A DNA stretch of 64,000 nt from an uncultured bacterium (GCA_963726455.1 CAVSCK010000004.1:1024001-1088000), one strand, 5' to 3'. Shown: positions 15,532 to 46,794, numbered from the stretch's first letter. Translations and numbers: made by a program. The notes: a model not told the origin generated them from the sequence alone.

Positions 15532-15929
15532 GTGTGACCTCCGAAAATTAGTTAATACGGTTGTTCGAGATTTCGTTTTCAAGGGATTATGAAAAGCTAA
15601 TTGACCTCGCTTGATGTCTGAGCGGTCCCCAATCATTCTCCGAACATTCGGAGCGTTCCCGTCGTCCCTTACTGAAAGCACATTTCAGTCCGACGTCGAC
15701 GCATTGCTGCCGTTACCGGTCGTCGGGATACGACTACCGGGCAGACCCCTGTGATGCTGTGAAAAGCGAAGTTGTGGTGATCTCAGGTCTGCGACTTCCA
15801 AGAAGCCGGACTCGTAATCAAAATCACCCAAGCTCTGATTTTCTGATTTACGCAATTAACCTAAGTAATGAACGTCTGTTTGTCAACCTATTTTGCCATG
15901 TTCTGGAAGATTATCTGCTAGAATTGAAG

Positions 15930-15947
15930 AAAGCCGGTGAAGGGACT
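15930..15947 (+). repeat. att site (displaced 3' end of tRNA-Thr)
   Basis: Identical to 30244-30261. Confidence 0.92.
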
Positions 15948-16026
15948 GCACACATTAATGCACTTTCAATTCCCCTGTCGATCAAAATAGTTTCGAAAAG
16001 GCGAATAGCGTAGTATCGTCGCGCTG

Positions 16027-16572
16027 ATGATAGTGCGAACACGACAGCGACCGCAAAATGAGCCTGAGCGGCCGTGGATACTGGCTACTCACAAAGGCGA
16101 TTACGGAAAGTTGCTTCTCGCAGCGCGGCCATTCCAGAAGTCACTTTGTATAGTCCGGCCCGCCATCAAGAGGACGTCACCAAGAATTTCCTATGAGCCG
16201 CTCTATTTCGATTATGTCTTCCTGAGAGCATTGTCGGGCAGCCTGTTTGTCACGATCAAACACCTTCCGGTAAAGGTAGTCTGCTTGGGCGACAAGACTC
16301 TGTCGATCACACAGGCGGAAATGGATAAGATCACTGAGATTACTCGGACTCTCGCCTATCAAGCCGCTCACCCACCGGGGGCGCAAGAATTTGTACAGGA
16401 ACACAAGGGCAAGCAGGTCACCATCACCGGCGGCTCGGCGTGCGGAATGTCCGGTATCGTCGATTCTGAGGCCAGCACGCGGGACGTGTTTGTCAGGATC
16501 GCGGGCCTGCGAATACGGGTGCCGATGGACAGGTTGGATGTTGAGACTGTTGGCGTAACGTCTTCCCCTTGA
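16027..16572 (+). CDS. NusG/RfaH/UpxY-like transcription elongation factor paralogue
   Basis: EPLYFDYVFL (cf. xPLFPGYVF of the NGN domain) and KOW-like GKQVTITGGSACGMSGIV. Confidence 0.65.
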   Translation: MIVRTRQRPQNEPERPWILATHKGDYGKLLLAARPFQKSLCIVRPAIKRTSPRISYEPLYFDYVFLRALSGSLFVTIKHLPVKVVCLGDKTLSITQAEMDKITEITRTLAYQAAHPPGAQEFVQEHKGKQVTITGGSACGMSGIVDSEASTRDVFVRIAGLRIRVPMDRLDVETVGVTSSP

Positions 16573-17016
16573 GCCTTCTGCCGCTTCTCTACGATTATGC
16601 CCTTATTGATGTACCCGTTGTTTCTGAACGATTCTTCGCCTTTTTAGGTGTCAACTTTGTCAAATTTGCGATACGCTTGTCTCTGTTACTTCTCTGCTTA
16701 TCAGTGCTCATGTCGAATTATCCGGGGCGTCCGGCAGTTGTCCGATGGAATCGGACGACTTACACAAATTCCCCGCGAATCATTGTTAATTCGTTGTTCT
16801 CAATGCCTTCCTGAAGGCGGCATTTTCCCCACCAAAACAACAGCATAGCATTGACATTTATCTCTCCTAGCCTGATATTGAGGTCACGTTCACGAAGTAG
16901 AGCACAAATCTAATTGCAGTCTGGAAGCTGATCACGTCCAGGCGCAACTCCTCTGAGTGCGCAGAGTGTCCTGCTGGAACCTCAGCCGCAAAGACCGAAG
17001 GGAGACAATAAAAATC

Positions 17017-17562
17017 ATGTTGGGAAAGATACTGATTGCGGCGGTATTGACGTTTTGGCTGCCAGCCGTCGGCGGGAATCTCACAGTCACGGTGGATACT
17101 GGCATGGCCTTGAACGGCGGCTTATCCAGCCTAAACTTTCATAGCCGACTCAGCGTGTTGAAGATCGTAATTAATGATGATGCTTGCCCTGCCCAATTGA
17201 CAGAAGCGGGCCTGTGGCCGAACAACAATAAGGTTGACTTTCTGTTCTCGACCACCGGCAAACTAACTTCACTGGATAGCATCGATGCTGTTGACATCAC
17301 ATTCCTCGCCTATGATTATTTTGACCGTGCTATACTGAGATTCGCGACGCCAGAAGCATTCTCCCTGTCGCCCGGTAAGGAGATGGATATTGGCAAGCTA
17401 ATGGGGCAAGTCGTCAACGAACGTCAAAGAAGACTATTATTCAAGTCTGTCACCTTTGTTTCTGCAATCAGAAGAAAGGACGGAAGCCTTTGGTTCGCAG
17501 ACGAATCAGCAATCATTGCGCTCGTCAAATCGCTGAATCTCGAATTTCCAACGCAAAACTAA
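17017..17562 (+). CDS. Hypothetical secreted protein
   Basis: RBS gaagggag; signal-peptide-like MLGKILIAAVLTFWLPAVGG. Confidence 0.6.
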   Translation: MLGKILIAAVLTFWLPAVGGNLTVTVDTGMALNGGLSSLNFHSRLSVLKIVINDDACPAQLTEAGLWPNNNKVDFLFSTTGKLTSLDSIDAVDITFLAYDYFDRAILRFATPEAFSLSPGKEMDIGKLMGQVVNERQRRLLFKSVTFVSAIRRKDGSLWFADESAIIALVKSLNLEFPTQN

Positions 17563-17578
17563 AATTGGAGAATCAATC

Positions 17579-17959
17579 ATGTTCAAGAGATTTTCGCTGA
17601 TCAGTCTTGTCGCAATTCTGTCATTGTTGTTCGCCTGCACCGGCAAACAAGGGCCGACGGGGCCGCAAGGTGATAAGGGCGATCCGGGCGATCCGGGGAC
17701 GGGAACTCGAATTGTCTATCAAAGTACCGCACCCGCAAACAGCCAGCAGTTTGTCGTGATGATCCCAGAGATTGACACCCACGATATGCCGTCAGTCACC
17801 GCGTATACCGCCACGACAACTTATCCGAACTCTTGGTTTCCAATTCCGTTGTATGTTTCTGGCGGGCCGGACTTGGGCGCATGTTTCATCGTTGAAACCG
17901 GAAAGGTTACGCTCGTGAATTGCAGCGGCCTTCTCTACAAGATTGTCATTGTGATCTGA
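17579..17959 (+). CDS. Small lipoprotein with collagen-like Gly-X-Y repeat
   Basis: Lipobox LFAC followed by GKQGPTGPQGDKGDPGDPG. Confidence 0.75.
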   Translation: MFKRFSLISLVAILSLLFACTGKQGPTGPQGDKGDPGDPGTGTRIVYQSTAPANSQQFVVMIPEIDTHDMPSVTAYTATTTYPNSWFPIPLYVSGGPDLGACFIVETGKVTLVNCSGLLYKIVIVI

Positions 17960-18108
17960 TGCGCGTTTGCCGGTGATCCTGGAGGTCAATACTGACTTGA
18001 CGATGGAAATGAGTTGCCCCTTGCCCGGCGGAAGACTCTGAAAATAAATAAAGAAAACTAAAGGTTTTTAGTTGCGTCGCCGATGACATTTGCGTATATT
18101 GGGTGAGA

Positions 18109-18291
18109 ATGAAAACAGGCACAACCGCGAAATCAGATCGGCAGCTTATCAACTTCGAGATTGAACCAGAGCTGAAGGCACGTCTTGAAACTCAGGCCAA
18201 GAGGGAGCATCGCACTCTCAGCGGTCTAGTAAAGCATATCATTCTGTCGTACTTGGAGTCTCGGGAAAGCGAGAAGAAACGTAGCAGATAA
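18109..18291 (+). CDS. Ribbon-helix-helix (Arc/CopG-like) DNA-binding protein
   Basis: INFEIEPELKARLETQAKREHRTLSGLVKHII pattern. Confidence 0.75.
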   Translation: MKTGTTAKSDRQLINFEIEPELKARLETQAKREHRTLSGLVKHIILSYLESRESEKKRSR

Positions 18292-18379
18292 GTAAACGGC
18301 GATGCAGACCAGGCACGGTCTACACCGCCTTTGAGAGGCTCAAATGAGCCAGTACACAGTATAACTTGAGAGGTATCAA

Positions 18380-18757
18380 ATGACAACCCGCAAATCTACA
18401 ATCCCCGCCAACGGTCACAAAGACTCGAACCCGTTCCTTACCGATGAAGAGCAGAGACAAGCTATCAGTGGCCTCCAACTCGCTTCATTTGGTCTCGAAG
18501 AGGCAGCGAAATTTGAGAAGCTGGTGGAAGACAGGAGGCGCAATCCCAACTGGCAAAAGGAATTCAAACCCGCTCCCACCCAGCCGTCAAATAGAGAGCT
18601 CCGCAAGTTTCTCAGAGGGAATGAGAGACGTCGTTTCGACGGGGCTATCTCGAAGATGGATTCAGCGATAAGACTGATGAGGGGCAGCAGCGGTCTCCTG
18701 TCGCAATACAGGGAACTCGCCACTAAGAGAATGAATCAGGCCGGAGGCGCGCTGTGA
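18380..18757 (+). CDS. Hypothetical protein
   Basis: RBS gagagg; stop overlaps the recombinase start (GTGA). Confidence 0.55.
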   Translation: MTTRKSTIPANGHKDSNPFLTDEEQRQAISGLQLASFGLEEAAKFEKLVEDRRRNPNWQKEFKPAPTQPSNRELRKFLRGNERRRFDGAISKMDSAIRLMRGSSGLLSQYRELATKRMNQAGGAL

Positions 18758-19695
18758 ATTCAAGTATTACTCAGACCACTCTGCCGAGCACTAACAGTGT
18801 CGGCTTTCAGCAGCTTATCGATGCTTTTCTGTCCCGCCGAAGTCGAGAGACTCGGCGGGCTTACTCAAAGGACTTGGCCGACTTCGCGACGTATCTTGAA
18901 GTCGCTGACAATGAAACTGCCCTACTGCGGCTCGTGTCCAGTGGCCAAGGACAAGCGAATTCGATGGTCATGGGTTACAAGACGGCGCTGATCGAAGGCG
19001 GCAAATCGCCGAACACGGTCAACCGCCGACTGGCAACCTTGCGCTCGGCCGTCAAGTTAGCAATCACGCTCGGACTTGTGAACTGGACAATAAGCATCGA
19101 AAACGAGCGAGTCGAAGCCTATCGGGACACGACCGGGCCAGGCATTGAGGGATTCAGGAAACTACTCAGGTATTCGGCTCTTTCGGCACCGCCCTTTATG
19201 GGATCTCGGAATACCGCAATTCTGCGGTTATTGTTCGACCTGGCGCTTCGGCGCGGAGAAGTTGCCCAACTCGACTTGGCCGACTTGGACATCGACAACG
19301 GCACTATTCAGGTCATTGGCAAAGGTCGGAGCCAGAAAGCCACTCTGACACTGCCAGCGGCAACATGCGGGGCTTTGAGAGCTTGGCTCATGGTCAGAGG
19401 CGCCCAACCGGGGCCGCTGTTTAGGAACTTTGACCGGGCGCGCAAAGGCAACCGGCTGACCGACGGTGGAATTTACCGGATGGTGCGAAACCTGGGGCGC
19501 AAGATCGGTTTGGTAGTCCGACCTCACGGCTTGCGCCATGCCGCGATCACAAAGGCGCTTGACCTCACCGGCGGCAACGTCCGTAGCGTGCAAAAGTTCT
19601 CCCGACACCGGAACATGCAGACCTTAATGGTCTATGACGACAACAGACAGAATCTCGCCGGTACAGTCTCAAATCTGATTGCCGAGGCGGTTTAA
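18754..19695 (+). CDS. Tyrosine recombinase (XerC-like, no arm-binding domain)
   Basis: SAM-like N-terminus; catalytic R (LRRGEV), K (GKG), HGLRH, SRH...Y (LMVYDD). Confidence 0.92.
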   Translation: MNSSITQTTLPSTNSVGFQQLIDAFLSRRSRETRRAYSKDLADFATYLEVADNETALLRLVSSGQGQANSMVMGYKTALIEGGKSPNTVNRRLATLRSAVKLAITLGLVNWTISIENERVEAYRDTTGPGIEGFRKLLRYSALSAPPFMGSRNTAILRLLFDLALRRGEVAQLDLADLDIDNGTIQVIGKGRSQKATLTLPAATCGALRAWLMVRGAQPGPLFRNFDRARKGNRLTDGGIYRMVRNLGRKIGLVVRPHGLRHAAITKALDLTGGNVRSVQKFSRHRNMQTLMVYDDNRQNLAGTVSNLIAEAV

Positions 19696-19760
19696 ATTCG
19701 GTAGAATATGAGCACGGAAACCATCATTATCAGGCTCATATTCAGCCGGGGAAGTGAACT

Positions 19761-19994
19761 ATGAGTAGCGTTTACATGACCACAGCACAAGCCGCCGAGC
19801 GCCTGCAATACAGTTATAGCCACTTCGTGAGGGTCTTATTGCCAAAGTTGCCGGGCGTCATCAGAAATGGCAAGAATGGCGCTTATCGAATTCCCGTCGC
19901 GTCGTTGGTCGAATTTGAACGAAAGCATTTGGTCACTCACAACCCGGATTCGAAACCAGCAGCCTTTCGAGGGGGCACTGAGCAGAAGGAATAA
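19761..19994 (+). CDS. Helix-turn-helix (excisionase/MerR-like) protein
   Basis: YMTTAQAAERL...GAYRIPVASLVEF. Confidence 0.7.
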   Translation: MSSVYMTTAQAAERLQYSYSHFVRVLLPKLPGVIRNGKNGAYRIPVASLVEFERKHLVTHNPDSKPAAFRGGTEQKE

Positions 19995-20020
19995 TCAAGA
20001 GACATTCAAGTGGCTCAATA

Positions 20021-21400
20021 TTAGCTCCCAGCATTGGGTGACCTGAGAATTCTCTCCAGCTTCCGCCTGCTGATCCCCAACGCCCTCATAGTCGCACTCT
20101 TGTTGCCGTTATTCTTTTCCATGACAGCCGTCACAAAACGCTGTTCGAGCGTCACGATCGGCCAATTAGTATCAGCAACAAAACGGTGTGTGGGAGCGAT
20201 CTTATTGGGCTCGGCGATGGTTTGAGTCCCTTCAAAATTCATTGCCCACTTGGAACCGTATCTTCGAAAGAAATCGAGGGGACTTTCATCCGGGATATAA
20301 GTATCGAGCGGATTCTCGTGAATCTTTCGTTTGGCCGCTTTGATGAGGAACTTCTCTGCGAGCAGACGATAATCCTTCTCGCCAAAAGCGAGTATTGTTT
20401 CTCTACTCCACGCCCACTTCTTGAGTGTGCTCCGGTCAATGAACGAAAGTTGCCATCGGAAGGGATTCAGTCCAGCGAAACTTATGTCGGCCGCAAGCCA
20501 TCTTTCGGAGAAATACTCCCCCCCGAAGTAAGTGTCGGCATCGAGAAACCAACTGTAATTTCCTCGCCAGTGCTTCCACATAGGATGAGACCAGCGATGC
20601 CTATCGATACAGATATATCTCAGTACTTCATTCTTCAACTGCCGCACGTTGCCCTCCCATTCGTTCATCAGAAGTATGTGGACCAGAGCAGCCGGAAATA
20701 GGTCTATTCTTGCGATCTTCTCGTCGGCGCAAAATTCGTCGCAGAAATGCAGGAATAACTCTACCGCGTCAAGTCTTCTGTTTCTAAGGGGTTCCACTTC
20801 TATCTTCAATGGAAATCGCCAATACAGATCAGGACGGATTCCATATCTCCAGTCGTCTTCATTATTTCCTGTGGTGACACCACCACCGGCGTTCTTGACC
20901 GGCCGATTTGTTGCCGCAATGATTCGGCAATCAGACTTCTTGATTTCTGGAGACCCGAGTTTGTGGTATTCGCCCGACTCTATGAAACGGAGGATTTCTC
21001 CCTGAACCGACGAATCCAATCCGCCTATTTCATCGATAAAAAGAGTGCCTCCATTCGCCTCGAATACGAGGCCTTCCCTGTTCTCGGCACCAGTGTAAGC
21101 CCCTTTCTTGCATCCGAAAATCTGGCCGTGCGCCAACTGAGGATTTCCCTGAAAGTCGTACGAATTTACCGGCAGAATTCTTCCGCCTCGATTTCGGTCA
21201 CTCTTCTCATGCAAAAGATGCGCGACAACTTCTTTGCCAACACCCGACTCCCCCACGATCAGCACCGGCTCCCGCCGCGGAGCGTAAAGCTCGACATCGC
21301 CGCGCACTTGAGTCGTCGGTCCACTGCTACCGATCATCTTCTGTCTGGATACTTGGGTTTTCTCGGGTTGAACCGTCACTTCATTATGTGCGTTTTGCAT
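20021..21400 (-). CDS. Sigma-54 enhancer-binding AAA+ protein lacking an N-terminal regulatory domain
   Basis: GESGVGKE, FGCKKGAYTGA, TLFIDEIG, RIIAATN, WEGNVRQLKN; Trp-rich insertion; Fis HTH NGNKSATMRALGISRRKL. Confidence 0.88.
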   Translation of the reverse strand: MQNAHNEVTVQPEKTQVSRQKMIGSSGPTTQVRGDVELYAPRREPVLIVGESGVGKEVVAHLLHEKSDRNRGGRILPVNSYDFQGNPQLAHGQIFGCKKGAYTGAENREGLVFEANGGTLFIDEIGGLDSSVQGEILRFIESGEYHKLGSPEIKKSDCRIIAATNRPVKNAGGGVTTGNNEDDWRYGIRPDLYWRFPLKIEVEPLRNRRLDAVELFLHFCDEFCADEKIARIDLFPAALVHILLMNEWEGNVRQLKNEVLRYICIDRHRWSHPMWKHWRGNYSWFLDADTYFGGEYFSERWLAADISFAGLNPFRWQLSFIDRSTLKKWAWSRETILAFGEKDYRLLAEKFLIKAAKRKIHENPLDTYIPDESPLDFFRRYGSKWAMNFEGTQTIAEPNKIAPTHRFVADTNWPIVTLEQRFVTAVMEKNNGNKSATMRALGISRRKLERILRSPNAGS

Positions 21401-21500
21401 AATATGGTTCCTTTAGCTTAAGCATTTCGCTAAGGCCAAGCTAACACAAGTTAATAATAACGCAATCACTTTCTTCCAGACATCAGCATAATCCTTTGCA

Positions 21501-21513
21501 CATCAAGCAGTTA
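21501..21513 (+). promoter_or_regulatory. IHF-binding-like site
   Basis: CATCAAGCAGTTA vs WATCAANNNNTTR, just upstream of the -24 box. Confidence 0.45.
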
Positions 21514-21531
21514 TTTACGCGCCTTCCGGTT

Positions 21532-21547
21532 TGGCTCGGCTCTTGCT
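21532..21547 (+). promoter_or_regulatory. Sigma-54 (-24/-12) promoter of the element's main rightward operon
   Basis: TGGCTCG-GCTC-TTGCT, one mismatch to TGGCACG-N4-TTGCW. Confidence 0.75.
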
Positions 21548-21583
21548 ATACATACGGGAATGAAGCGATCCAAAGGAGATAAG

Positions 21584-21796
21584 ATGAATCAGTTTCGCTT
21601 GAAAAGAGTGCGGCTGGGGTTGACCCAGTACGACCTGTGGAGGGAGACCGGCATACCGCAATCTCGGATTTCGCTACTCGAACGCGGCTTCTACGAATTG
21701 AAGCCAGACGAAGACGAGAGGCTGAGATCGGTGTTGAAGATGCGCCCTCGGACTCCCAAAAATGACAAAACATCACTTGGCGCAACGGCTGCGTGA
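21584..21796 (+). CDS. XRE/Cro-like HTH protein
   Basis: RVRLGLTQYDLWRETGIPQSRISLLERG; RBS aaggag before ATG 21584. Confidence 0.85.
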   Translation: MNQFRLKRVRLGLTQYDLWRETGIPQSRISLLERGFYELKPDEDERLRSVLKMRPRTPKNDKTSLGATAA

Positions 21797-22002
21797 ACTT
21801 GAGGAACCCAGTGCCGCGACAAAGGCCACAGACGAAAGTGAATGTCAACCTCGGGACACCTAACCCAGACGGCCTTGCTCTGCTTGTCAACTTCGTTTCG
21901 ACCCGACTCGTGGTATCGATTCTCCAAAGTAACCAAGAACACAACCAAGAGGGCGACACCGTTGGGAGCCCTTCACCGGAAAGGAGTTCACAACGTGTGT
22001 AG
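21793..22002 (+). CDS. Small hypothetical protein
   Basis: GTGA overlap with the HTH gene, operon-like packing. Confidence 0.35.
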   Translation: MNLRNPVPRQRPQTKVNVNLGTPNPDGLALLVNFVSTRLVVSILQSNQEHNQEGDTVGSPSPERSSQRV

Positions 22003-22213
22003 CAAACTCGATTCGTTCAAAGAGTTTGTCCTCCGAGGTCACAAGTTAATCAGCGAGGGACAGGCCGACAAAGCTTTGTCTCTTGCATTCTGTCTACTCG
22101 ACAGCTTGGGCAATGTGGCGTTTCGCGAACAGGAACCTAAGAGAGCGTGCGTTTCCAAAAGCGTGCAGCCTTCGAATTCGAAACGAATTAACCAAATACA
22201 AAGGAAGAGGTAA
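21995..22213 (+). CDS. Small hypothetical protein
   Basis: RBS aaggag at 21981, GTG start. Confidence 0.45.
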   Translation: MCSKLDSFKEFVLRGHKLISEGQADKALSLAFCLLDSLGNVAFREQEPKRACVSKSVQPSNSKRINQIQRKR

Positions 22214-22217
22214 AACG

Positions 22218-22667
22218 ATGACAGGCGAGATCAAGGTACTCGGACAAAAGCCAGTTCAAGTCAGCTTGGCAGGACAGGAATTCACCATCTATCCGGCGAC
22301 ACACTATCGGATGAATCAGATCCTTGAGTGCGCCGCAACGGCGAGAGCAAATTCGGAAGCCATGCGCAAAGCAGAGGAGACCGAAGATGCGGCAATCAAA
22401 GCGCGGGGCGAAGAAATCCCCATCAGACCACTCAAGTCGACGCCGGTCGATTACGGAATTCTCCGGCTTATCTGCAAGGCTCCAGACACTTTCGAGAACA
22501 GCAAATTGGTTGAAGGCAAGGTTCCCGCTGTACTGACCAACGAATTCTGGAGCCAGCAAGTCCAGACGGCGGAAATAGCGGGCTTATTCGAGGTCTTTGT
22601 GTCCCTGCTTGACATCGACAAGCTCATTAAGAACGCTCTCTCACTCGTGGGACAGACCCGTGTGTAG
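22218..22667 (+). CDS. Putative tail assembly chaperone-like protein
   Basis: 149 aa with N-terminal VSLAGQEFTIYP strands then helices; directly upstream of the tape-measure-like gene (positional inference). Confidence 0.45.
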   Translation: MTGEIKVLGQKPVQVSLAGQEFTIYPATHYRMNQILECAATARANSEAMRKAEETEDAAIKARGEEIPIRPLKSTPVDYGILRLICKAPDTFENSKLVEGKVPAVLTNEFWSQQVQTAEIAGLFEVFVSLLDIDKLIKNALSLVGQTRV

Positions 22668-22715
22668 CCCCATGACAGAAGATGACTCGGATTTTCCAAA
22701 AAACTTGGAGCGTAA

Positions 22716-25504
22716 ATGCCCGGTGTAGTTGACATCCTGAAATATGTGTTGGAGCTGGACTCCGGCCAACTCAAAGCCGAAGCGAAACAATCCGACACAA
22801 TAATCAACCAGTTGTCAGGCACAATCAAGGGCGCGCTTGTTGGCGCATTGGGTGCCGCCGCTGTTGGTTTCGCTACGGTCAAGATCGGCGAATTTCTGAA
22901 AGATGCCACCCTGACGGCGGCACGTACCGAAGTGTTGGGAACTGTCTTGCATCAGGTCGGCAAGGTGGCGGGTGAATCAAGCGGATATCTTGACGGCTTA
23001 GCCGACAAGGTTGAGGCGCTAGGGGTCACTACCCAAGCAAGTCGCACTCTGCTTATTCGACTGATGCAGTCTCATCTTGACCTTGCCTATGCCGTGAAGA
23101 TTGCGACAGTTGCGCAAGACTTAGCCGTAGTCGCTGATCAGAATTCCTCTGAGGCCGCCGAAGGAATTACGATAGCAATTGCCAAAACCGATGTTGAGCT
23201 GTTGCGGCAATATGGTATCGTCATTAACGCAGAGCGACTATTCAAACAGTACGCCCAGACAATCAATAAATCAGCGTCCGAACTTTCCGATCTCGACCGT
23301 CGCACGGCGATTGCTAACGAGGTATTTCGCCAAGGGGCTGCCTCCGCTGGTACTTACGAAGCGGCAATGGCTGATGTCGGCAAGCAGATAACATCAATGC
23401 CTCGATACGTCGAGGAGATGAAGAACGCTCTCGGAAAGGGGTTTCTCCCCCTGCTCGCTGACATTGTGCATTTACTTCGCGACGCCACAGTCGGCCTTAC
23501 CGATTTTCTGACACCGGCGACAGAACTAAAAACAGCCGAACTAAACAAACTACAGTCAGAATTTAGCAAGATCACTGGAATCTTACCTGACTTGGTAAAG
23601 GAATTTGTAAATCTATCCACCAAGACAAGACTCACCAACACCGAACAAGATCGGCTCCTTACCATTCAGCAACAGATCGCCGCGCTCGCTCCCGGCTATA
23701 TCACAGCACTCAACGATGAGGGTATGGCGCTCGACCTTAACGCCAAATCCTTAGCCAACTACACCGGATTGCGCAAGGAACAGATTGAAACTATTAAGAA
23801 TGATCTGATTTCAGCACTGTTAGCGGAGGAGGAGGCACAAGATCGCGCCAACAAGAAGAACCTTGCTGCGATTGAGAATTTCAAGAAGATAGCCGCTTCG
23901 AACAAAGCTGCTGGTGTTAAGGTTGGCTATGGCATCCCAGGCCAAATCAATGAGATAGTGATCGAATTGTCGAAGGGCATCCAGCGCTCACTTGAATTAC
24001 AACAGCGCATCGCGGCACTTGGAAGCGAGGGGAGGATGCTGCCAAGAAAATTGAGAAGATACCAGAAGACCTGAAAATCGAGATCAAATTCGGCAGCGAG
24101 AACTTGTCCTCCGCCGAGGAGCAGATAAAGCGCATTCAGTCATTAGTCGAGGCGGTTCAATCCCAATTCGGCGACCAAGGGATTACGCCCGATAGCGACA
24201 AGTTGATTGCGGCATTGCGGTCACTTATCAATTCGGAAGCGGCGATGCTTTCGACCGATGCCCAGAGGATTATCATTGACGCACTCAACAAGGCGCGGGA
24301 CAACCAACGCAGTGATGCTAAGTCGAAATCCGATCAGGAGCGATATTACAAGGACATACAGGAGAGCGAAGCCAATGCAGCGAAAGATCGCCTCAATGAC
24401 ATAGAAAAGGAAAAGCGGGCGCGTGTAAATGCAGCCGTCGATGTCGCTGACGCCCTTGGTTATGCCGCTACCAATTTCTTTGGTCTCTTCGATGAAGGTA
24501 TTGCCCGAATCGCCTCGAATCTCAGTAACGCGATCAGTGGCGCAATTTCTGGATTCTCACAAGGCGGAGTTGCCGGGATTGCCGGAGCTATCGGCTCGAT
24601 TCTTTCAGGATTCGCTTCCCTTTTCAGCGGTGGAGCGGACAAGATTGTCGTGTCGCAATACGAATTGATCGAAGCCATCGAAAATTGGGAGTCTACCATT
24701 GAGACATTGACGCCAAAAGAAAAAACCGCGCAACAAGAGATGGCCGAACTCGGTATTGAGGCGGCCAGCAGATTAATGGGCAACGGTTGGGACTGGAATC
24801 AGATTGTGGCACTGCTCAGACCCCTATTTGAATCTGTCGGGTTATCCATTCCACAAGGCATTACATATGAGCAATTTCTTGGTTGGGGAAATGACATCAT
24901 CGCGGACATTGGCGCATCAAATGCACAAACGACCGCTGAATTGAAAGCGGATAATGCCGCGTCGCGCAGGGAACTTGTTCTGAGTCAAAAGACGGGAACT
25001 GACGCGCTTGAGACCATCGCCGATCTTGATAAACTCTATGCCTTGAGCCCCGAGGAATTGCATGCTCTCTATGAAGAAACGATGGCGAAGTTTGGTGACA
25101 AAATGTCAGATAGCGACAGAATCAACACACAGGCATTGATTAACGATTACCACAGAGGAGAGGCTGAGCGAGCGCAGAGCGGGGCCGGAGCCGAGCAGAC
25201 TCAGGCGTCCCGCTCGATTCAGAAAATAACCGAACGCCAGGTCGACTCGCTCATTTCCGCGTTGTCCACCATCGACCTGCACATAACCGAGGGCATACAG
25301 AAATTGCTCGATGGCATCCGCAACACGACTAACAGGACAACCATGAATGCGGCGGCGACTATCGAAGTGGCGGTAATCAACGCGGGTGTAATCAACACGG
25401 GGTCGATCAGAGTAGCGGGATCGATGAGTGGCAATAATGGCGCATCGGCGAATACGAAGCAATTACTTACTGTCGAATCACGCAGCCTAGGTAGGAGGGT
25501 GTAA
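22716..25504 (+). CDS. Phage tail tape-measure-like protein, split by a frameshift near 24030
   Basis: Ala/Gly-rich amphipathic helical segments, ELLRQYGIVI...SELSDLDRRTAIANEVFRQG core, IAGIAGAIGSILSGFASLFSGG segment; second frame open from ~24032 (EDAAKKIEKIPEDL...) into ORF 24104-25504. Confidence 0.72.
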
Positions 25505-25574
25505 GGCATGTCATCGGAAGCAAACACAGCGTGTGCGAGAATCACCGGAGTTGACTGTGTCTAACCGCGCAAAA

Positions 25575-25985
25575 ATGACACCTGAAAAAAGAGAGACGTT
25601 CCTCGCTACGCTTGAGACTACGGGAGGGCAGATAACAAAGGCATGTAAGGCCTGTGCTGTTTCGCGCGACGTAATCTATCGACTTCGCAAAAGTGATGAA
25701 CAATTCGGGAAAGACTTCGAAGCCGCACTCGACAAAGGCATTGACCTGCTCGAAGCGGAATGCAAGCGGCGCGCATTTGAAGGCGTTCCCAAACCCGTGT
25801 TCTATAAAGGCAAAGAGTGCGGGATCATTCAGGAATACTCCGATACACTTGCGATCTTCCTGATGAAGGCTCACCGGTCGAAGTACAAAGAGAAATTCCT
25901 ACTGACTGGTGAAGGCGGCGGCGCAGTCAAAGTCCTCGTTGAATATGTGAACAAACCCAATGGAGTGTATCGTGAAGTGTGTTGA
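25575..25985 (+). CDS. Terminase small subunit-like HTH protein
   Basis: FLATLETTGGQITKACK...EAECKRRAFEGVPKPVFYKG...YSDTLAIFLMKAHRSKYKE pattern of phage TerS-like proteins. Confidence 0.72.
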   Translation: MTPEKRETFLATLETTGGQITKACKACAVSRDVIYRLRKSDEQFGKDFEAALDKGIDLLEAECKRRAFEGVPKPVFYKGKECGIIQEYSDTLAIFLMKAHRSKYKEKFLLTGEGGGAVKVLVEYVNKPNGVYREVC

Positions 25986-26397
25986 CCTCAAGACAGTTTT
26001 CGGACGGAGATACAAGATTGCTGCTGATCCCTCGGCCGGGGCCCGCAACGTCGATCCGTGGTACTGGACTATCCCCTGCCGGCGCGGCGAAATCTATCCC
26101 TATGGCGGCGACTTCCTTTGTGCCTCGGTACGAAATGGGGCGGTTTCCAAGTCGATGCGCTCCTGGCCCGAGCTGACGGTTTTGCAGGACGCCGACGACG
26201 AGACAGTCTTCAAGTTTCACGTCAACAACTTCGAAAAGGTAGCTCAGGCCGTGGGTGCCAAGAAACGGCGGCGAATGTCAGTCGAGACCATGAAGAAAAT
26301 TGGTGCAGACACGGCGTACGTGACGCCAAACGGGGGTGAATTTCAACGATCTCCCCAAGGGGCGAGTGATTTGACACGGGGGGCAGTTCGTGTATGA
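25960..26397 (+). CDS. Hypothetical MGE protein
   Basis: Overlaps both neighbours; DPWYWTIPCRRGEIYPYGG...QDADDE motif; function unknown. Confidence 0.6.
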   Translation: MECIVKCVDLKTVFGRRYKIAADPSAGARNVDPWYWTIPCRRGEIYPYGGDFLCASVRNGAVSKSMRSWPELTVLQDADDETVFKFHVNNFEKVAQAVGAKKRRRMSVETMKKIGADTAYVTPNGGEFQRSPQGASDLTRGAVRV

Positions 26398-27022
26398 TTT
26401 AGACACCCTAAAGGCCGGCGTCACCATCGAGAACATCCTTGACGATTTCGGGATTGCCCACCGCCATCACAGGGCAGCCTGTCCCGTTCACCGTGGCGAC
26501 AATAGGTCTGCTTTCAGCTTCAACGATGAGGCTTTCTACTGCCACACCCAAGGATGCAAGGGCGGCGTTATCGACCTGGTCATGGCTCTGGCCGGGACTG
26601 ATTTCAGGGGCGCGCTGGACTATCTGGCTCGCAAGAAGGGAATCGCGAATGATTTCGGAATCACCGGGACGACTCAGTTTACAAGGAGTCTGCCTGACAA
26701 TTCTGATCCATTCAGGGAAGAAAGGAAACGGCTCTCACCAAAAGACTATGTGGAGTTGCTTTGTATGGCCGACGATCTTAACCGCGCTGAATCCGACCTC
26801 GCCGAATGCAGGAGTAACATTGGCACACTGACCGCCCAATTATCCCAACTTATCCACCTCAAGAGGCGGAAACAGATTGCCAAATCGCTGTACTACTTGA
26901 ACACACAGAAGATCGACGACAACCGGCTCGCACTGTTCGACGAGCAGGAAGCACAACTCAACTACAAGGTCAAAGAGATAAAGCGGCAAATCAGCGAGTT
27001 CAGGAAGAAGGTAAGGCAATGA
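26390..27022 (+). CDS. CHC2 zinc-finger (DnaG zinc-binding domain) protein with C-terminal coiled coil
   Basis: CPVHRGDNRSAFSF...FYCHTQGCKGGVIDLVM...FRGALDYLA. Confidence 0.85.
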   Translation: MYDLDTLKAGVTIENILDDFGIAHRHHRAACPVHRGDNRSAFSFNDEAFYCHTQGCKGGVIDLVMALAGTDFRGALDYLARKKGIANDFGITGTTQFTRSLPDNSDPFREERKRLSPKDYVELLCMADDLNRAESDLAECRSNIGTLTAQLSQLIHLKRRKQIAKSLYYLNTQKIDDNRLALFDEQEAQLNYKVKEIKRQISEFRKKVRQ

Positions 27023-28263
27023 TTAGCGACTGCGAAATTGACGCCGAGTTTTGCCAAGAGACCGACGCTGACATCGACCTGACGATACCCGAATCCGGCT
27101 TTCTCCTGAAATATTACAACCTAATCTGCCCTATCACAGAGGCGCCTGAAGTCTACCATCTGTTTATGGGAATGTCTTTGATCGCCGGTGTCCTCGGGCG
27201 CAAAGTGTTTCTCGACTGGACGGCTTACAAGATTTACCCGAACCTGTATATCATCCTGGTCGGCGCGTCTTCAGCAATCAAGAAATCGACGTCAATCAAC
27301 CAAGCCCGACCGTTTCTTAACGCCGTCGATCCCAACCTGATCTTTCCAAATGAATTCTCGAATGAAGCTTTCTTGGAGCTCCTTGTCACTCAGCCGCAAG
27401 GTTCGCTGTTCTGGGATGAATTCGGCGGCGTGCTCGCGACATTCGAGCGTTCGTACATGTCCGGTACCAAAGAAATGCTGACCTCGATGTTTGACTGTCC
27501 GAGTGACTATCGACGGTTGCTCAAAGGCAACGCCAAGAGCAAAGAGTCGGGCAAGGTCGTTATCATCCGGGAACCGTACATCAATATCGCCACTACTTCA
27601 ACCCTTGAGTGGCTCGTCAATCGGATCAAGGAACAGGATATCAAGTCGGGTTTCCTGGCTCGATTTGTCTACGTGCCCGGTAAAGAGCCGAGCAAACGAC
27701 TTTCGCGCCCGCCCAAATTAGATCAGAAGTTGAGGTCCGAAATCATCATGGAGTTGAAGGCTATTCGAGAGATTTCGGGCGAAGCGGAACTCACTGACGA
27801 CGCGTTTCTGTACTATGACACCTGGTACAACGGTGTCTTTGATCAGATACAGAAGGGCGACAATCGCGACAAGCTCTCCCCTTTCTTTAGCCGGCTACTG
27901 GTCTACGCTCTCAAATTCGCCCTGATCTACCAAGTGTCCGAAGATCACTCGCTGACAATTCAGGAACACAACATGATCAGGGCGTGTCAGTTGGTCGACT
28001 TCCTCAAGCGCAACATCAAAGACATGGTCGAAAATGAACTGGTTTTTGGTGTGGACGCCATTCAGTTGAAGAGAGTGTTGGAAGTCATCAAGTCAGAGGG
28101 TGCGATTGAACGGAGCAAACTTTTCACGCGAGTGAACTATCGAAAAGACATTCTCAACCGACTCATCGATACCCTTCTTGAGCAGGAACAGATTTCGGTT
28201 TCTCGGGAACAGTGGCACAAGGGGAAGAAGCCGAGAACGATTTACACCTATAACGGTAAGTGA
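27019..28263 (+). CDS. DUF3987/YfjI-like P-loop NTPase (replication helicase-like) with C-terminal winged helix
   Basis: PNLYIILVGASSAIKKSTS, WDEFG, SGFLARF motifs. Confidence 0.8.
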   Translation: MISDCEIDAEFCQETDADIDLTIPESGFLLKYYNLICPITEAPEVYHLFMGMSLIAGVLGRKVFLDWTAYKIYPNLYIILVGASSAIKKSTSINQARPFLNAVDPNLIFPNEFSNEAFLELLVTQPQGSLFWDEFGGVLATFERSYMSGTKEMLTSMFDCPSDYRRLLKGNAKSKESGKVVIIREPYINIATTSTLEWLVNRIKEQDIKSGFLARFVYVPGKEPSKRLSRPPKLDQKLRSEIIMELKAIREISGEAELTDDAFLYYDTWYNGVFDQIQKGDNRDKLSPFFSRLLVYALKFALIYQVSEDHSLTIQEHNMIRACQLVDFLKRNIKDMVENELVFGVDAIQLKRVLEVIKSEGAIERSKLFTRVNYRKDILNRLIDTLLEQEQISVSREQWHKGKKPRTIYTYNGK

Positions 28264-28290
28264 CAACCACTTAGGGCGCTTGAAAGGAAA

Positions 28291-28590
28291 TCAAAACTTT
28301 GGTAAATTTAGATAAACTTCGCGAAATGGTATGTTATGCGCAGACAATGAGTTACCATATAACTTCTAAACTACTAACTACTACTACTACTACTACAGGG
28401 GGCGCTGACTCACCTGAAATCAAAGGGAAAAAGAGGGAGAGATGCAAGAAGTTGTCGAAGTTTAGAAGTTTACACCTAAACCCTTTTATCTAATTACGAT
28501 ACCTATTCGCGAACATTTGCGAAGTTTACGACTGCTTCTGTTGCCCACTTGGACTCGGGGAAACAAGTTGCCAAAGACCTTTAGGGCGCA
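28291..28590. other. Putative replication origin (iteron-like repeats)
   Basis: GAAGTTTA/TAAACTTC octamers in both orientations, (CTA)n tract, ttagggcgc repeated at 28271 and 28581; non-coding and directly after the helicase-like gene. Confidence 0.5.
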
Positions 28591-28626
28591 TACTGTGACA
28601 CCGACTACCGAAAGGAATAACAGACG

Positions 28627-30372
28627 ATGAAGTGCGCCGTCTATGCCCGGTACAGCTCCGACATGCAGAAACAGACCAGCATCGAAGATCAGGTGCGGGA
28701 GTGTCGGCAGTTCATCGAGCACAGACAGTGGGAAGTTGCCGACGGCCGGGTGTACTCTGACTACGCCATCAGTGGAGCTGATATCAACCGCACGGGTTAC
28801 CAGGCACTCAAGGCAGACGCATACAAGAAACTGTTTGCCTGCATCGTAGTTGACGACTTATCGCGACTCGGAAGGGACGCCGGAGAAGCAATCCAAATCT
28901 ACGGGGAATTGACTGCCTATGGAGTTAACATCGTCTCTGTGTCGGATGGAATCGAAACGGCTTCATCTTCTTCGAAGATTCCCTACTACTTCAAGAGCAT
29001 TGCCAACGAACTCTTTCTGGATGAACTGAAGGCCAAGATCGTTCGCGGTCTCAAAGGTCAAGTCTCTCGCGGTTACTCTGCCGGCGGCCGGACCTACGGC
29101 TACTACTCCGAGCCGGAACTTGTTCCGGGTGGCGGCGCTGACAAATTCGGCAGACCTCGGCGGCACGGGGTTAAGATCAAAATCAATGAGAAAGAAGCGG
29201 AAGTCGTGCGAATGATCTTCCGACTCCGCGCCGATGGTCTTGGACAACGTGCGATTGCCACTCGCCTGAATGAACTGAAAATCCCTTCCCCATTTGCACA
29301 CGTCGACCACTTTAGCGGAACTTGGTCGCCCGACACGGTACGCCACATGTTGCAACAGCGGAGATATATCGGCGACTGGACTTGGAACAAGAGCCGGTCT
29401 CTCAAGAAGAATCCTCTCGGTAAGCGAATTGTCAGAGAGAAGACAGTCGACCAATGGATTGAACACGTCGACGAATCATTGCGGATCATTCATCAAGATT
29501 TGTGGGACGCTGTACTGGCGACATTTGCAGACAAAGAAACACGATTGCGGTTCACGCCGGGGCCGAAAGGTGTCTATCTCTTGGGTGGGCTGCTTAAGTG
29601 TTCTCGCTGCGGATCGTCACTTGTCGGAATGAAATCGAAAGGATGGACTGCCTATGTGTGCAGCGGCAACAGAAGTAAAGGCAAGGTGTACTGTCCAGCC
29701 TCACACCGACTACCGCTCATCGAGGCTGACTCCGGAGTTCTGCAAGGCTGCAAAGAAATTCTGTTTTCTGATGAAACACTCGCATTGATTTCACGCCAAG
29801 TCAACGAAGCGTTGGCGACTATCGAGAAGCAGACTCCCAAGCGGCGAGATCGCTTAGCGAGAAGACTCAACACTCTTGACACGTCCATTGAGCGCCTACT
29901 TGATTTTGCGGAGACTGAACCGAGTAGTCCTGCTCTTGGTGAACGCCTACGGACTCTGGAAGCGGAAAAGCGCACTGTCCAGGCCGAACTTGATGCACTC
30001 AAAACCGAAACCCGTAGGACTAACCGACTGTCCGAAGAGTTCATCAAGGCCAGTCTGCAAGGGCTCCTACCTGCCGTGAGCGCTGACGAAAGCAGCCGCC
30101 AGGAGCTGAAATTCATCCTCAGCAAGATGTTTCCGGAAAAATTGTCTGTCACGATTCGCGAAAAAAATGGCTATGTTGAGTTTGGCGTGCTTGGTAACCT
30201 AATGCCCCTCAATATCCTTCCGAAGGCTTCTGCGTTAATGTATAAAGCCGGTGAAGGGACTCGAACCCCCGACCAGCTGATTACAAATCAGCTACTCTAC
30301 CAACTGAGTTACACCGGCTTAAGAAATCTGCCTGCCCGTTTCAAGTACCGTCACTCCGACGCGCAGGATTAG
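28627..30372 (+). CDS. Large serine recombinase (integrase)
   Basis: YARYSS catalytic Ser, DDLSRLGRD, recombinase domain, Zn ribbon LLKCSRCGS...YVCSG...YC, coiled coil; 3' end crosses the att repeat and tRNA. Confidence 0.95.
   Translation: MKCAVYARYSSDMQKQTSIEDQVRECRQFIEHRQWEVADGRVYSDYAISGADINRTGYQALKADAYKKLFACIVVDDLSRLGRDAGEAIQIYGELTAYGVNIVSVSDGIETASSSSKIPYYFKSIANELFLDELKAKIVRGLKGQVSRGYSAGGRTYGYYSEPELVPGGGADKFGRPRRHGVKIKINEKEAEVVRMIFRLRADGLGQRAIATRLNELKIPSPFAHVDHFSGTWSPDTVRHMLQQRRYIGDWTWNKSRSLKKNPLGKRIVREKTVDQWIEHVDESLRIIHQDLWDAVLATFADKETRLRFTPGPKGVYLLGGLLKCSRCGSSLVGMKSKGWTAYVCSGNRSKGKVYCPASHRLPLIEADSGVLQGCKEILFSDETLALISRQVNEALATIEKQTPKRRDRLARRLNTLDTSIERLLDFAETEPSSPALGERLRTLEAEKRTVQAELDALKTETRRTNRLSEEFIKASLQGLLPAVSADESSRQELKFILSKMFPEKLSVTIREKNGYVEFGVLGNLMPLNILPKASALMYKAGEGTRTPDQLITNQLLYQLSYTGLRNLPARFKYRHSDAQD
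30246..30318 (-). tRNA. tRNA-Thr (anticodon UGU)
   Basis: Reverse complement GCCGGTGTAACTCAGTTGGTAGAGTAGCTGATTTGTAATCAGCTGGTCGGGGGTTCGAGTCCCTTCACCGGCT folds as a cloverleaf; CCA not encoded. Confidence 0.97.
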
Positions 30373-45412: not shown

Positions 45413-46794
45413 CTAGCCGGGGTTCTCCCGGTTGTTATCAATTCCGTACTTCTTGATCTTCTCGAATAGCGTCGTGTAATCGATCTTAAGAATTTCCGCC
45501 GTCTTGCGTTTGTTGCCGTGAGTCTGCGCGAGTATCCGCAGGATCATGCCGCGTTCGGCCTGTGCCTGGGCATATTGTCCCACTTCGCGCAGTCCGGCGC
45601 CCTCGCGCAAGGCGAATTTCTTCGGTACTGGGCAGACGAATCGCCAGATGCTCCGGCTTGATCTTCTTCCCTTCCGCCAGAATGATCGAGCGCTCGACCG
45701 TGTTTTCCAGTTCGCGGACATTGCCCGGCCAGTGGTAGCGTTCGAGAATGGCGATGGCCTCGCGCGACAGCGACTTCTCCCCCTTTTTCATACGGCGGGA
45801 GTATTTCTCGACAAAGTAATTGGCGAGCGGCACGATGTCGTCGCGGCGTTCACGCAACGGAGGAATATGAATCGGAAACACCGACAAACGATAGAAAAGA
45901 TCCTCACGGAACTTCTGTTTGCCGATGGCTTCCTGCAAGATTCTGATTGGTGGCGGCAATAATGCGGACATCCACCTCAATCGGTTTGTTGCCGCCAAGA
46001 CGCTCGAATGAGTGCTCCTGCAGCACGCGCAATAGTTTCGCCTGCAGCGAAAATTCGAGATCACCGATTTCGTCGAGAAAGACGGTGCCACCATCGGCGA
46101 TTTCGAACTTGCCCATCTTGCGGGCATGCGATGAAGTAAACGCACCCTTCTCGGAACCGAACAATTCGTTCTCCAGAAGTTCGCCCGGAATGGCGGCGCA
46201 GTTGATCGTGATATAGGGTTTATTCTTGCGCTGCGACAACGAGTGGATGGCATGCGCGAACAATTCTTTACCGGTACCCGATTCGCCGGTGAGCAGAACG
46301 GCGGTGTCTGAGGGCGATACCTTCTGCACCAGCCGCGAGACTTCCAGCATGTTTTCGCTGGCGCCGATGATCTCGGCGAAACCGAGCGACTGCGCAAGTT
46401 CTTCACGCAGCAGCATATTCTCCGCAACCAGCCGCTGGTTTTCCAGAGCGCGTTCGACCAGCATTTGCAGATGATTGATGTCGAACGGCTTCTGCAGGAA
46501 ATCGAAAGCCCCGCGTTTCATCGCCTCGACAGCATTCTCGATTGTGCCGTAGGCGGTCATGACGATCACGGCGGTATCGGGGTCATGTTCCTTCACCTGC
46601 GACAACACTTCCAGCCCCGAGATGTCGGGCATCTTAAGATCGGTCAGCACCACATCGAAATGCTTCTCTTTGCTCTTGGCGATACCAATATCACCCGAGC
46701 CCGCGGCATCAACATCGTATCCTTCCGAAGTCAATGACGCCGACAACATGTCGCGCATGCTGTCCTTGTCGTCGATAACCAAAATAGCCGGCAT
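45413..46794 (-). CDS. Sigma-54-dependent response regulator (two frameshifts)
   Basis: REC ILVIDD...TDLKMP; GESGTGKE; ENELFGSEKGAFTSS; FREDLFYRL; WPGNVRELEN; HTH GNKRKTAEILKIDYTTLFEK. Confidence 0.9.

Follow-up and report, generated by a model that had tools for sequence, protein, structure and literature searches.

Large serine integrases of the classical kind use protein-coding or intergenic targets with 2-12 bp of identity, and their phage attachment site (attP) lies outside the integrase gene. An attP inside one of an element's own genes is known from SSV1-type archaeal integrases and from integration-dependent immunity in mycobacteriophages; these systems use tyrosine integrases, and integration alters the product of the gene concerned. 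Here we analyzed a stretch of 64,000 nucleotides from an uncultured bacterium (GCA_963726455.1, CAVSCK010000004.1:1024001-1088000; hereafter the window) that holds a 14.3-kb mobile island within a threonine tRNA gene of an Ignavibacteria genome. The element is most aptly placed in an undescribed family of self-replicating islands that integrate at tRNA genes and center on a large serine integrase with an internal attachment (att) site, and three apparently borrowed phage genes suggest that it may spread inside the particles of another phage.

The closest described satellites are the phage-inducible chromosomal islands (PICIs), among them the Staphylococcus aureus pathogenicity islands (SaPIs). 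According to PMC10085698 (cited, like the other publications below, from parts of its text), their five core components are an integrase (tyrosine and serine integrases being treated as exchangeable), a primase-replicase, a small terminase, a regulation module (a homologue of alpA, merR or stl) and capsid morphogenesis; tail genes are consistently present only in phages and are forbidden in the model for capsid-forming PICIs (cfPICIs). The tycheposons of Prochlorococcus (bioRxiv 10.1101/2020.12.28.424599) resemble our element in being tRNA-associated, in having their own replication genes, and in including a PICI-like subset with TerS or a capsid gene as well as a cargo subset; a large serine recombinase occurs in the 27 of 937 elements without a tyrosine recombinase. 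Tycheposons belong to another phylum and are likened here by description only; their PICI-like members were never seen with additional cargo, whereas our element has both, and an att site inside a serine integrase gene is not described in the parts of the preprint examined. The one printed precedent that we found for a serine recombinase paired with a tRNA site, tRNA-Met(CAT), is Paracoccus phage vB_PamS_Pami6 (PMC6536676). It is a complete 38.8-kb active siphovirus treated in the portion consulted as an isolated case, whereas the element is a small island, likened by description. A passage of PMC4383910 states that no integrases other than tyrosine integrases were known to act on tRNA genes. 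When the literature was searched for satellites that carry a tape-measure gene, or for tRNA-targeting serine integrases, only the tycheposon preprint, the Islander statement and Pami6 emerged; no description of our integrase family or of its embedded att site was found in the article texts searched, and the literature examined describes no satellites in Ignavibacteria.

A preliminary description, written by a model from the sequence alone, had proposed that an 18-bp direct repeat matching the tRNA-Thr 3' end bounds about 14.3 kb and that both att ends are intact. Both proposals held: the copies are exact, and the integrase tail next to attL is open and conserved. The features at the two ends are as follows.

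15930..15947, no strand: attL core, copy of the tRNA-Thr 3' end (exact repeat)
15948..16013, plus strand: displaced 3' end of the serine integrase gene, 21 codons and stop (aligned to the C-terminus of the G024 integrase)
28627..30372, plus strand: large serine integrase, integrated-form open reading frame (ORF) of 581 aa (PF00239, PF07508, PF13408)
30244..30261, no strand: attR core (exact repeat)
30245..30319, minus strand: tRNA-Thr(UGU), regenerated target gene (ARAGORN, Rfam)

The repeat, AAAGCCGGTGAAGGGACT, spans the final 17 nt of tRNA-Thr, the sole tRNA in the window (Rfam tRNA, 70.1 bits), plus one base (blastn-short E 1.8e-5, tRNA region versus element). About 0.002 chance 18-mer repeats are expected by calculation in 16 kb, and the observed one falls on the tRNA 3' end. 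Only one copy of the element is present in the host genome (3.64 Mb, 5 contigs), and its G+C content, about 0.47-0.55, is somewhat lower than that of the flanks (0.55-0.58). When the tRNA region was compared with the element by short-word BLAST, no convincing third att copy emerged; the best match, 11 nt at 18422-18432, is at chance level, and a fusion of two elements via an internal att copy was rejected.

The integrase has the resolvase catalytic domain, recombinase domain and zinc beta-ribbon of large serine recombinases (PF00239 at 3.8e-24, PF07508 at 2.5e-22 and PF13408 at 1.7e-7; phrog_95 at 1.1e-85), the same architecture as in the phage integrases of TP901-1, phiC31 and Bxb1. Its catalytic domain matches the TP901-1 integrase (family profile) at 3.7e-18, and R8, S10, D76/D77, R80 and R83 are invariant across 15 relatives. 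The preliminary description had correctly named a serine integrase; it missed that the gene holds the att site and that its product is the likely tRNA integrase. The ORF passes through the att repeat and the entire tRNA, so that its last 36 residues are antisense to the tRNA gene, and the 18-bp core forms six in-frame codons (K-A-G-E-G-T, integrase residues 540-545). On the attL side the same frame reads AGEGT-AHINALSIPLSIKIVSKRRIA-stop. This displaced tail aligns with the C-terminus of the integrase of genome G024, both ending at the stop (E 7e-6); the G024 integrase (49% identity over 548 aa) runs beyond its own core as SGAGT-CNAIGVSIPFEVIVVSKRRAA-stop, 21 residues, and the same tail is also present in locus L112. 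Because the last 21 integrase codons lie at the element's other end, the full 566-aa gene would exist only on the excised circle, and the integrated copy is predicted to encode a 581-aa variant whose tail comes from the tRNA gene. In G024 a 15-mer core occupies the same codon positions of the integrase gene and equals the 3' end of a tRNA-Met that the contig also carries, which indicates that the embedded core co-varies with the target tRNA. From these alignments we infer that the large serine integrase, and not the tyrosine recombinase that the element also encodes, is the tRNA integrase. In contrast to classical large serine integrases, attP would thus lie inside the 3' coding end of the integrase gene and share 18 bp with the tRNA (45 bp in the pair L137/L140 discussed below). 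As in the SSV1-type and mycobacteriophage systems, different proteins would be made in the integrated and free states, the element swapping only the last 21 residues of a serine integrase; a regulatory use of this exchange is speculation.

In G024 itself (L007, G024:C64, 613-7456), the tRNA-Met core occurs twice, at a distance of 6.8 kb: once in the tRNA-Met and once inside an intact integrase gene. Between them are ORFs of 696 and 1357 aa (CarboxypepD_reg repeats) and a truncated NusG-like start, an arrangement suggestive of either a tandem array or a second, decayed element at that tRNA.

Scanning metagenomes with the integrase alignment yielded 80 loci (L110-L189), 58 of them non-duplicate and with a clean ORF. 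The integrase stop codon lies inside an antisense tRNA in 23 of the 58 (Met 15, Glu 3, Lys 3, Phe 1, His 1), 30 have at least 100 nt past the stop and no tRNA, and 5 are too short to judge. Four further loci (L110, L111, L115 and L120) end inside an antisense tRNA by a separate tRNA check; likewise, the integrase of G014 ends inside tRNA-Thr and that of G004:C24 inside tRNA-Met. Two loci, L137 and L140, are almost the same across the end of the integrase and through 45 nt of the 3' half of tRNA-Lys, and then diverge at the anticodon loop. They appear to represent an attP-type form and a tRNA-Lys-joined form, and some of the tRNA-less loci would likewise be attP-type. A quick maximum-likelihood tree of 64 sequences placed tRNA-linked members across all major clades, with G000 and G014, both at tRNA-Thr, as sisters (support 99). 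A search of viral contigs with the integrase alone gave no relatives. A panel of 14 phage structural proteins (tblastn), too narrow to be informative, matched the 80 loci only through two L142-derived proteins that hit L142 itself. These data expose a widespread serine-integrase family that targets tRNA 3' ends (Met, Glu, Lys, Thr, His, Phe) with the att site within its own gene. Such islands may escape Islander-type tools, and serine integrases with short, defined and conserved targets are useful enzymes for genome engineering.

Between the two ends, the genes from XRE to the helicase form one long co-oriented operon, with a divergent regulator ahead of it. The ORFs were scanned against Pfam, PHROGs and NCBIfam, with PADLOC, PDB sequence and ESM Atlas searches for selected proteins, and nearly every gene named in the preliminary description was recovered. 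The regulators, the phage-derived block and the replication module are listed below.

20021..21400, minus strand: sigma-54 enhancer-binding protein (PF00158 at 3.2e-38; PF25601; PF02954, HTH_8)
21532..21546, plus strand: sigma-54 -24/-12-like promoter TGGCTCGGCTCTTGC, one mismatch to consensus
21560..21796, plus strand: XRE-family helix-turn-helix (HTH) regulator, first gene of the long operon (PF01381 at 3.5e-5)
22083..22667, plus strand: tail-assembly-chaperone-like protein, 194 aa (27% identity, E 6e-13, to the ORF immediately preceding the L029 tape-measure gene)
22716..24074, plus strand: tape-measure N-terminal half, 452 aa (42% identity to the 932-aa L029 tape-measure protein)
24104..25504, plus strand: tape-measure C-terminal half, 466 aa, in another frame (27% identity, E 3e-30, to residues 546-878 of the L029 protein)
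25533..25985, plus strand: phage small terminase subunit TerS (phrog_4044 at 2.4e-35)
25960..26397, plus strand: conserved 145-aa protein (homologues 48% and 40% identical in L129 and L119)
26390..27022, plus strand: CHC2 zinc-ribbon (DnaG-type) primase-like protein (PF01807 at 3.9e-7)
27019..28263, plus strand: DUF3987 primase/helicase-type replication protein (PF13148 at 5.3e-13; phrog_14296 at 4.9e-30)
28264..28626, no strand: ori-like intergenic region (GAAGTTTA iterons, inverted repeats, (ACT)8-9 run)

Proteins with CHC2 and DUF3987 domains had been predicted, and so had the ori-like repeats, which are real: the GAAGTTTA octamer has 6 sites in the window (1.26 expected), 4 of them within 28313-28528. 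DUF3987 homologues occur in 2 of 60 relatives, and a profile search of the genome contigs added no further locus; among viral contigs, the DUF3987 search gave one ordinary phage contig with a fused 720-aa primase-helicase. The 145-aa protein, whose nearest ESM Atlas clusters are unnamed and mostly viral, is a candidate directionality factor. Its homologues in L129 and L119 lie directly upstream of the serine integrase. These two more distant loci also encode an activator and a RepO-like initiator. Within the ori-like region, the (ACT)8-9 microsatellite at 28370-28396 could vary in length from copy to copy.

The divergent sigma-54 activator and the XRE gene also bear out the preliminary description. 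Lacking a receiver domain, the activator combines an AAA+ domain that starts at residue 22, a GAYTGA loop (by eye; GAFTGA-type) and an HTH, as in bacterial enhancer-binding proteins, with a C-terminal insert of about 150 aa before HTH_8. The promoter-like site, which closely precedes the XRE gene, is part of the 160-bp divergent region. In L129, where the activator is 36% identical over residues 22-392, insert included, a perfect TGGCATCCAAGTTGC stands at the equivalent promoter position. At least 30 other activator-like loci in the host indicate that it uses sigma-54. Elsewhere in the window, a chromosomal activator paralogue (45684-46374, minus strand) was recovered as two separate tblastn pieces, which may reflect a frameshift or insertion. 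In L129 (10001-11668), the integrase beside tRNA-Met is split into ORFs of 406 and 146 aa, and that element may be fixed in place.

The chaperone-like and tape-measure-like genes of the preliminary description were confirmed by transitive homology, via viral contig L029 and the tape-measure PHROGs. In L029, one 932-aa ORF inside a normal siphovirus structural module, between chaperone and distal tail genes, is collinear with both halves in the element; the 452-aa protein is 42% identical to it over residues 4-349 (L029 residues 7-351). That protein has only 7 relatives in a search of 5.8 billion proteins; they match tape-measure PHROGs down to 4e-21. In IMG/VR, relatives are encoded by at least 481 stretches. 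Judged by this homology, the 194-, 452- and 466-aa genes are a siphovirus tail-assembly chaperone and a split tape measure. The TerS-like gene without TerL likewise proved to be a genuine phage-type TerS. It is full-length (138 of 150 residues of phrog_4044 match) and 31-36% identical to annotated TerS of PaMx11/PaMx28-type siphoviruses, with 148 phage records matching; in PaMx11, terS is followed by terL, portal and head genes. The L029 record, complete to only 50%, yielded no TerS. No TerL, capsid, portal or lysis family was found in the element ORFs (Pfam, PHROGs). The host genome gave no match to TerL (PF03354, PF03237), capsid (PF05065), portal (PF04860), or PaMx11 TerL or portal; since none is detectable in this complete-looking genome, a helper would come from outside. 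The block sits within the co-oriented operon between the regulator and replication genes, with gaps of 28-48 nt or overlaps, in line with the tight packing described earlier.

The backbone of the element, with a tyrosine recombinase, a primase/helicase and a serine integrase at a tRNA, is shared by sibling elements at four further loci, one of them without the serine integrase.

G219:C82: tyrosine recombinase, 509-aa protein, CHC2, DUF3987, integrase
G014:C14: tRNA-Thr, integrase, DnaB helicase, CHC2, further genes, tyrosine recombinase
G004:C24: tyrosine recombinase, about 8 kb of small genes, DnaB helicase, integrase, tRNA-Met
G004:C16: tRNA-Thr, 44-bp repeat; tyrosine recombinase, CHC2, DUF3987; without serine integrase

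The check for the same gene order elsewhere, which the preliminary description had recommended, thus succeeded for the backbone, which recurs in G219, G014 and G004 (two loci), and failed for the exact architecture, a singleton. The G004 genome carries two related elements (L005/L006 and L201/L204), one at tRNA-Thr without a serine integrase and one at tRNA-Met with both recombinases. Because sibling elements of 10-14 kb contain no recognizable virion genes, the backbone appears to be a small element in its own right, and the possibility raised earlier, that homologous loci would always be parts of full prophages, is not what we see. A further relative, L142 (metagenome contig VAPK010417643.1, 83-8652), is 8.55 kb long with a 19-bp repeat at tRNA-Met and encodes an AEP-D5 primase-helicase, a TerL-like gene (phrog_2 at 6.6e-26), a small upstream ORF and a related serine integrase. 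Its small size, tRNA-Met repeat, primase-helicase and TerL-like gene make it satellite-like itself, and we consider it a candidate minimal satellite.

These observations suggest how the element could work. The serine integrase would catalyze integration and excision at the tRNA, and the excised circle would replicate from the iteron region via the CHC2 and DUF3987 proteins. The divergent activator would turn on the XRE, chaperone, tape-measure, TerS, 145-aa, primase and helicase genes from the -24/-12 promoter, and TerS would redirect the terminase of an infecting siphovirus, so that the element is packaged in the manner of a PICI. That the element is real is clear; it is probably active as an integrative, replicating element, and its family has hardly been described. 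It may plausibly live as a PICI-like satellite, and we give this explanation as a whole, satellite strategy included, a probability of about 0.5. It is unlikely that the element goes further and is a new Ignavibacteria satellite with its own sigma-54 switch, with its own TerS, tape measure and chaperone re-sizing or re-targeting helper tails, and with an integrase that would sense its integration state through the swapped C-terminal tail and so bias excision or integration. As ideas on regulation, both the state-dependent integrase tail and the sigma-54 switch can be tested. If the element is a satellite, it extends satellite-like elements to Ignavibacteria, and a satellite with a tape measure would be unprecedented if that gene functions.

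With PICIs and SaPIs the element shares a size of about 14 kb, site-specific integration, a putative regulator, a primase/replicase with ori, TerS without TerL, and cargo beside the att site, and four of the five core components as given in the cited part of PMC10085698 would be present by function. The integrase is a serine integrase, the CHC2 and DUF3987 proteins with adjacent iterons would be functional analogues of the primase-replicase, and TerS (phrog_4044) is homologous to annotated phage TerS. For regulation, the element has the XRE protein (HTH_3) and a sub-threshold HTH_17 protein, and its main regulator looks sigma-54-type. No capsid-related Pfam or PHROG family was found in the element ORFs, although those without a family match might include an unrecognized capsid-morphogenesis gene. 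Unlike PICIs, the element has a tRNA-targeting large serine recombinase, a sigma-54 activator with XRE rather than Stl or AlpA, a second recombinase, and a tail-assembly chaperone with a tape measure; its host belongs to the Ignavibacteria. None of the cfPICI hallmarks (capsid, portal, protease, head-tail connectors, TerL) is in the element, and two TerL families and the capsid and portal families are absent from the genome. Nor did the Pfam and PHROG scans of its ORFs find the psu-delta-sid operon, epsilon or alpha primase of P4-like satellites. The PICI-like elements (PLEs), defined by 15 Vibrio markers (capR, repA, nixI, lidI and others), have a host unrelated to the Ignavibacteria. Judged from Pfam and PHROG content, the element appears to fit none of the four SatelliteFinder families, which agrees with the earlier placement outside PICI, cf-PICI, P4 and PLE. 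The new satellite class proposed at the same time stands as regards the discrete tRNA-integrated element, the replication module with its ori, and TerS without TerL; it is weakened by the failure to find TerS in the other class genomes searched, by the tail genes and by the singleton architecture.

Several results weigh against the satellite explanation. A search with the element TerS as query gave matches in 0 of 284 other genomes of the class Ignavibacteria, and no sibling has the chaperone-tape-measure-TerS block, which together suggest that the block is a singleton acquisition; the satellite reading thus rests on one copy. Forty further ORFs of the four siblings match 24 PHROG families, all of them replication, nuclease or regulator families, with 0 for head, packaging, tail or lysis. 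The chaperone and tape-measure homologues conflict with the rule that satellites have no tail components, as stated in the cited part of PMC10085698. The tape-measure gene is split over two frames that overlap at about 23993-24074 near an A-run, which may reflect a passively captured fragment in decay, a genuine frameshift or an error of assembly. Sigma-54 near-matches are only mildly enriched in the window (8 versus 4.8 expected) and the element motif has one mismatch; with a motif count mildly above chance, the link between activator and operon depends mainly on conserved position. DNA and protein searches of same-genus and same-family genomes gave no conserved synteny with either flank and no empty attB, no helper markers were found in the genome, and the element is known here from its integrated sequence. 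Finally, G004:C16 shares the tRNA-Thr site and the tyrosine recombinase without having the serine integrase, which keeps a tyrosine-recombinase route under consideration.

The strongest competing explanation is an integrative replicating island that needs no phage and resembles a plasmid once excised. In it, the chaperone, tape-measure and TerS genes would be captured and decaying siphovirus DNA without a role in spread, and any transfer would occur by vesicles, transformation or mobilization. The restriction of the block to this one copy, the failure to find TerS in the 284 genomes, the frame-split tape measure and the lack of helper prophage markers in the genome all fit such an island. Yet TerS is full-length and the block stands mid-operon, not at the element's edge. 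The order chaperone, tape measure, TerS cannot be obtained by one deletion in a phage genome, which implies that specific genes were selected; moreover, no relaxase or other transfer gene turned up in the Pfam and PHROG scans of the element ORFs, and L142 shows that terminase genes occur in related integrase elements. We regard the phage-independent island as a tentative alternative that is less probable than packaging by a helper. A remnant of a full temperate siphovirus, with capsid, TerL, tail and lysis genes deleted, would account for the phage-type TerS, tape measure, chaperone, XRE, primase/helicase and integrase, one of these genes being frame-split. However, the element has two exact ends, an open and conserved integrase tail displaced to attL, and no intergenic debris in the operon; the gene order (XRE, chaperone, tape measure, TerS, replication, integrase) would need several deletions plus a rearrangement, and the siblings share the backbone without recognizable virion genes. 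The decayed prophage, which the preliminary description had also argued against, is thus very unlikely.

Another possibility is that the tyrosine recombinase inserts the element into tRNA-Thr and the serine recombinase serves another purpose.

18754..19695, plus strand: XerC/D-sized tyrosine recombinase, 313 aa (PF00589 at 2.6e-20; PF02899)

This gene, too, was among those named beforehand. Its homologues (50-61% identity) were detected at 7 loci in 6 of the 284 other class genomes, and 3 of these loci also have the serine integrase; no conserved partner gene was found among the sibling loci. Long identity blocks are classical for tyrosine integrases, the only ones known at tRNA genes according to the passage of PMC4383910, and G004:C16, with its 44-bp repeat, has a 56% identical tyrosine recombinase at the same tRNA-Thr(UGU). 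Against this, three of the seven loci (G013, G273 and G012) lack any tRNA or tRNA-Thr fragment within the 11-20 kb examined, and that of G004:C24 is at tRNA-Met, not tRNA-Thr. The protein has only a SAM-like domain and no arm-binding N-domain. Conversely, at 27 or more metagenome loci without this tyrosine recombinase, the gene for the serine integrase adjoins or overlaps a tRNA. No homologue of the tyrosine recombinase was found at any of the 80 loci (tblastn 1e-4), and the codons that hold the att core are the same for two different tRNAs. We therefore consider integration by the tyrosine recombinase very unlikely. For this enzyme, resolution of multimers of the replicating circle is our guess.

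The left arm, in which a NusG/UpxY-like gene and three small envelope proteins would constitute cargo, contains the following genes in addition to the tyrosine recombinase.

16027..16572, plus strand: NusG/UpxY-like putative antiterminator, 181 aa (NF033644, E 3.8e-7, 30 bits versus a cut-off of 100)
16569..16814, plus strand: hydrophobic (membrane) 81-aa protein, cargo (sequence by eye; no family match)
16957..17562, plus strand: cargo protein of 201 aa; N-terminal signal or transmembrane segment by eye, without family match
17579..17959, plus strand: 126-aa lipoprotein with a short collagen-like G-x-x run (lipobox LLFAC by eye)
18103..18291, plus strand: ribbon-helix-helix-like ORF, 62 aa (weak PDB matches to PutA RHH/CopG, E 0.16-0.22)
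18380..18757, plus strand: 125-aa protein, no family; its 3' end overlaps the start of the tyrosine recombinase gene by 4 nt
19761..19994, plus strand: HTH_17 (excisionase/AlpA-type) candidate, 77 aa (PF12728, E 2.6e-4, 21.7 bits versus a cut-off of 27)

The secreted and lipoprotein cargo of the preliminary description corresponds to the three small envelope proteins. Its NusG-like, ribbon-helix-helix and HTH genes were recovered as ORFs with sub-threshold or weak similarities; for the 181-aa protein there was no Pfam match, and the PDB sequence search was empty. Residues 20-47 of the lipoprotein resemble collagen-like stretches of tail-fiber PHROGs (E 1e-4). No homologue of the 125-aa protein was found beside the sibling tyrosine recombinases, and PADLOC found no known defense genes in the cargo, its sole match being of the AAA+ part of the activator to RtcR/PspF models. 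Directly outside attL, about 125 bp (15770-15894) are conserved at about 74% identity in all three same-genus genomes, on contigs without tRNA-Thr; this stretch may serve the 167-aa gene at 15178-15681 as a conserved leader or as a regulatory region.

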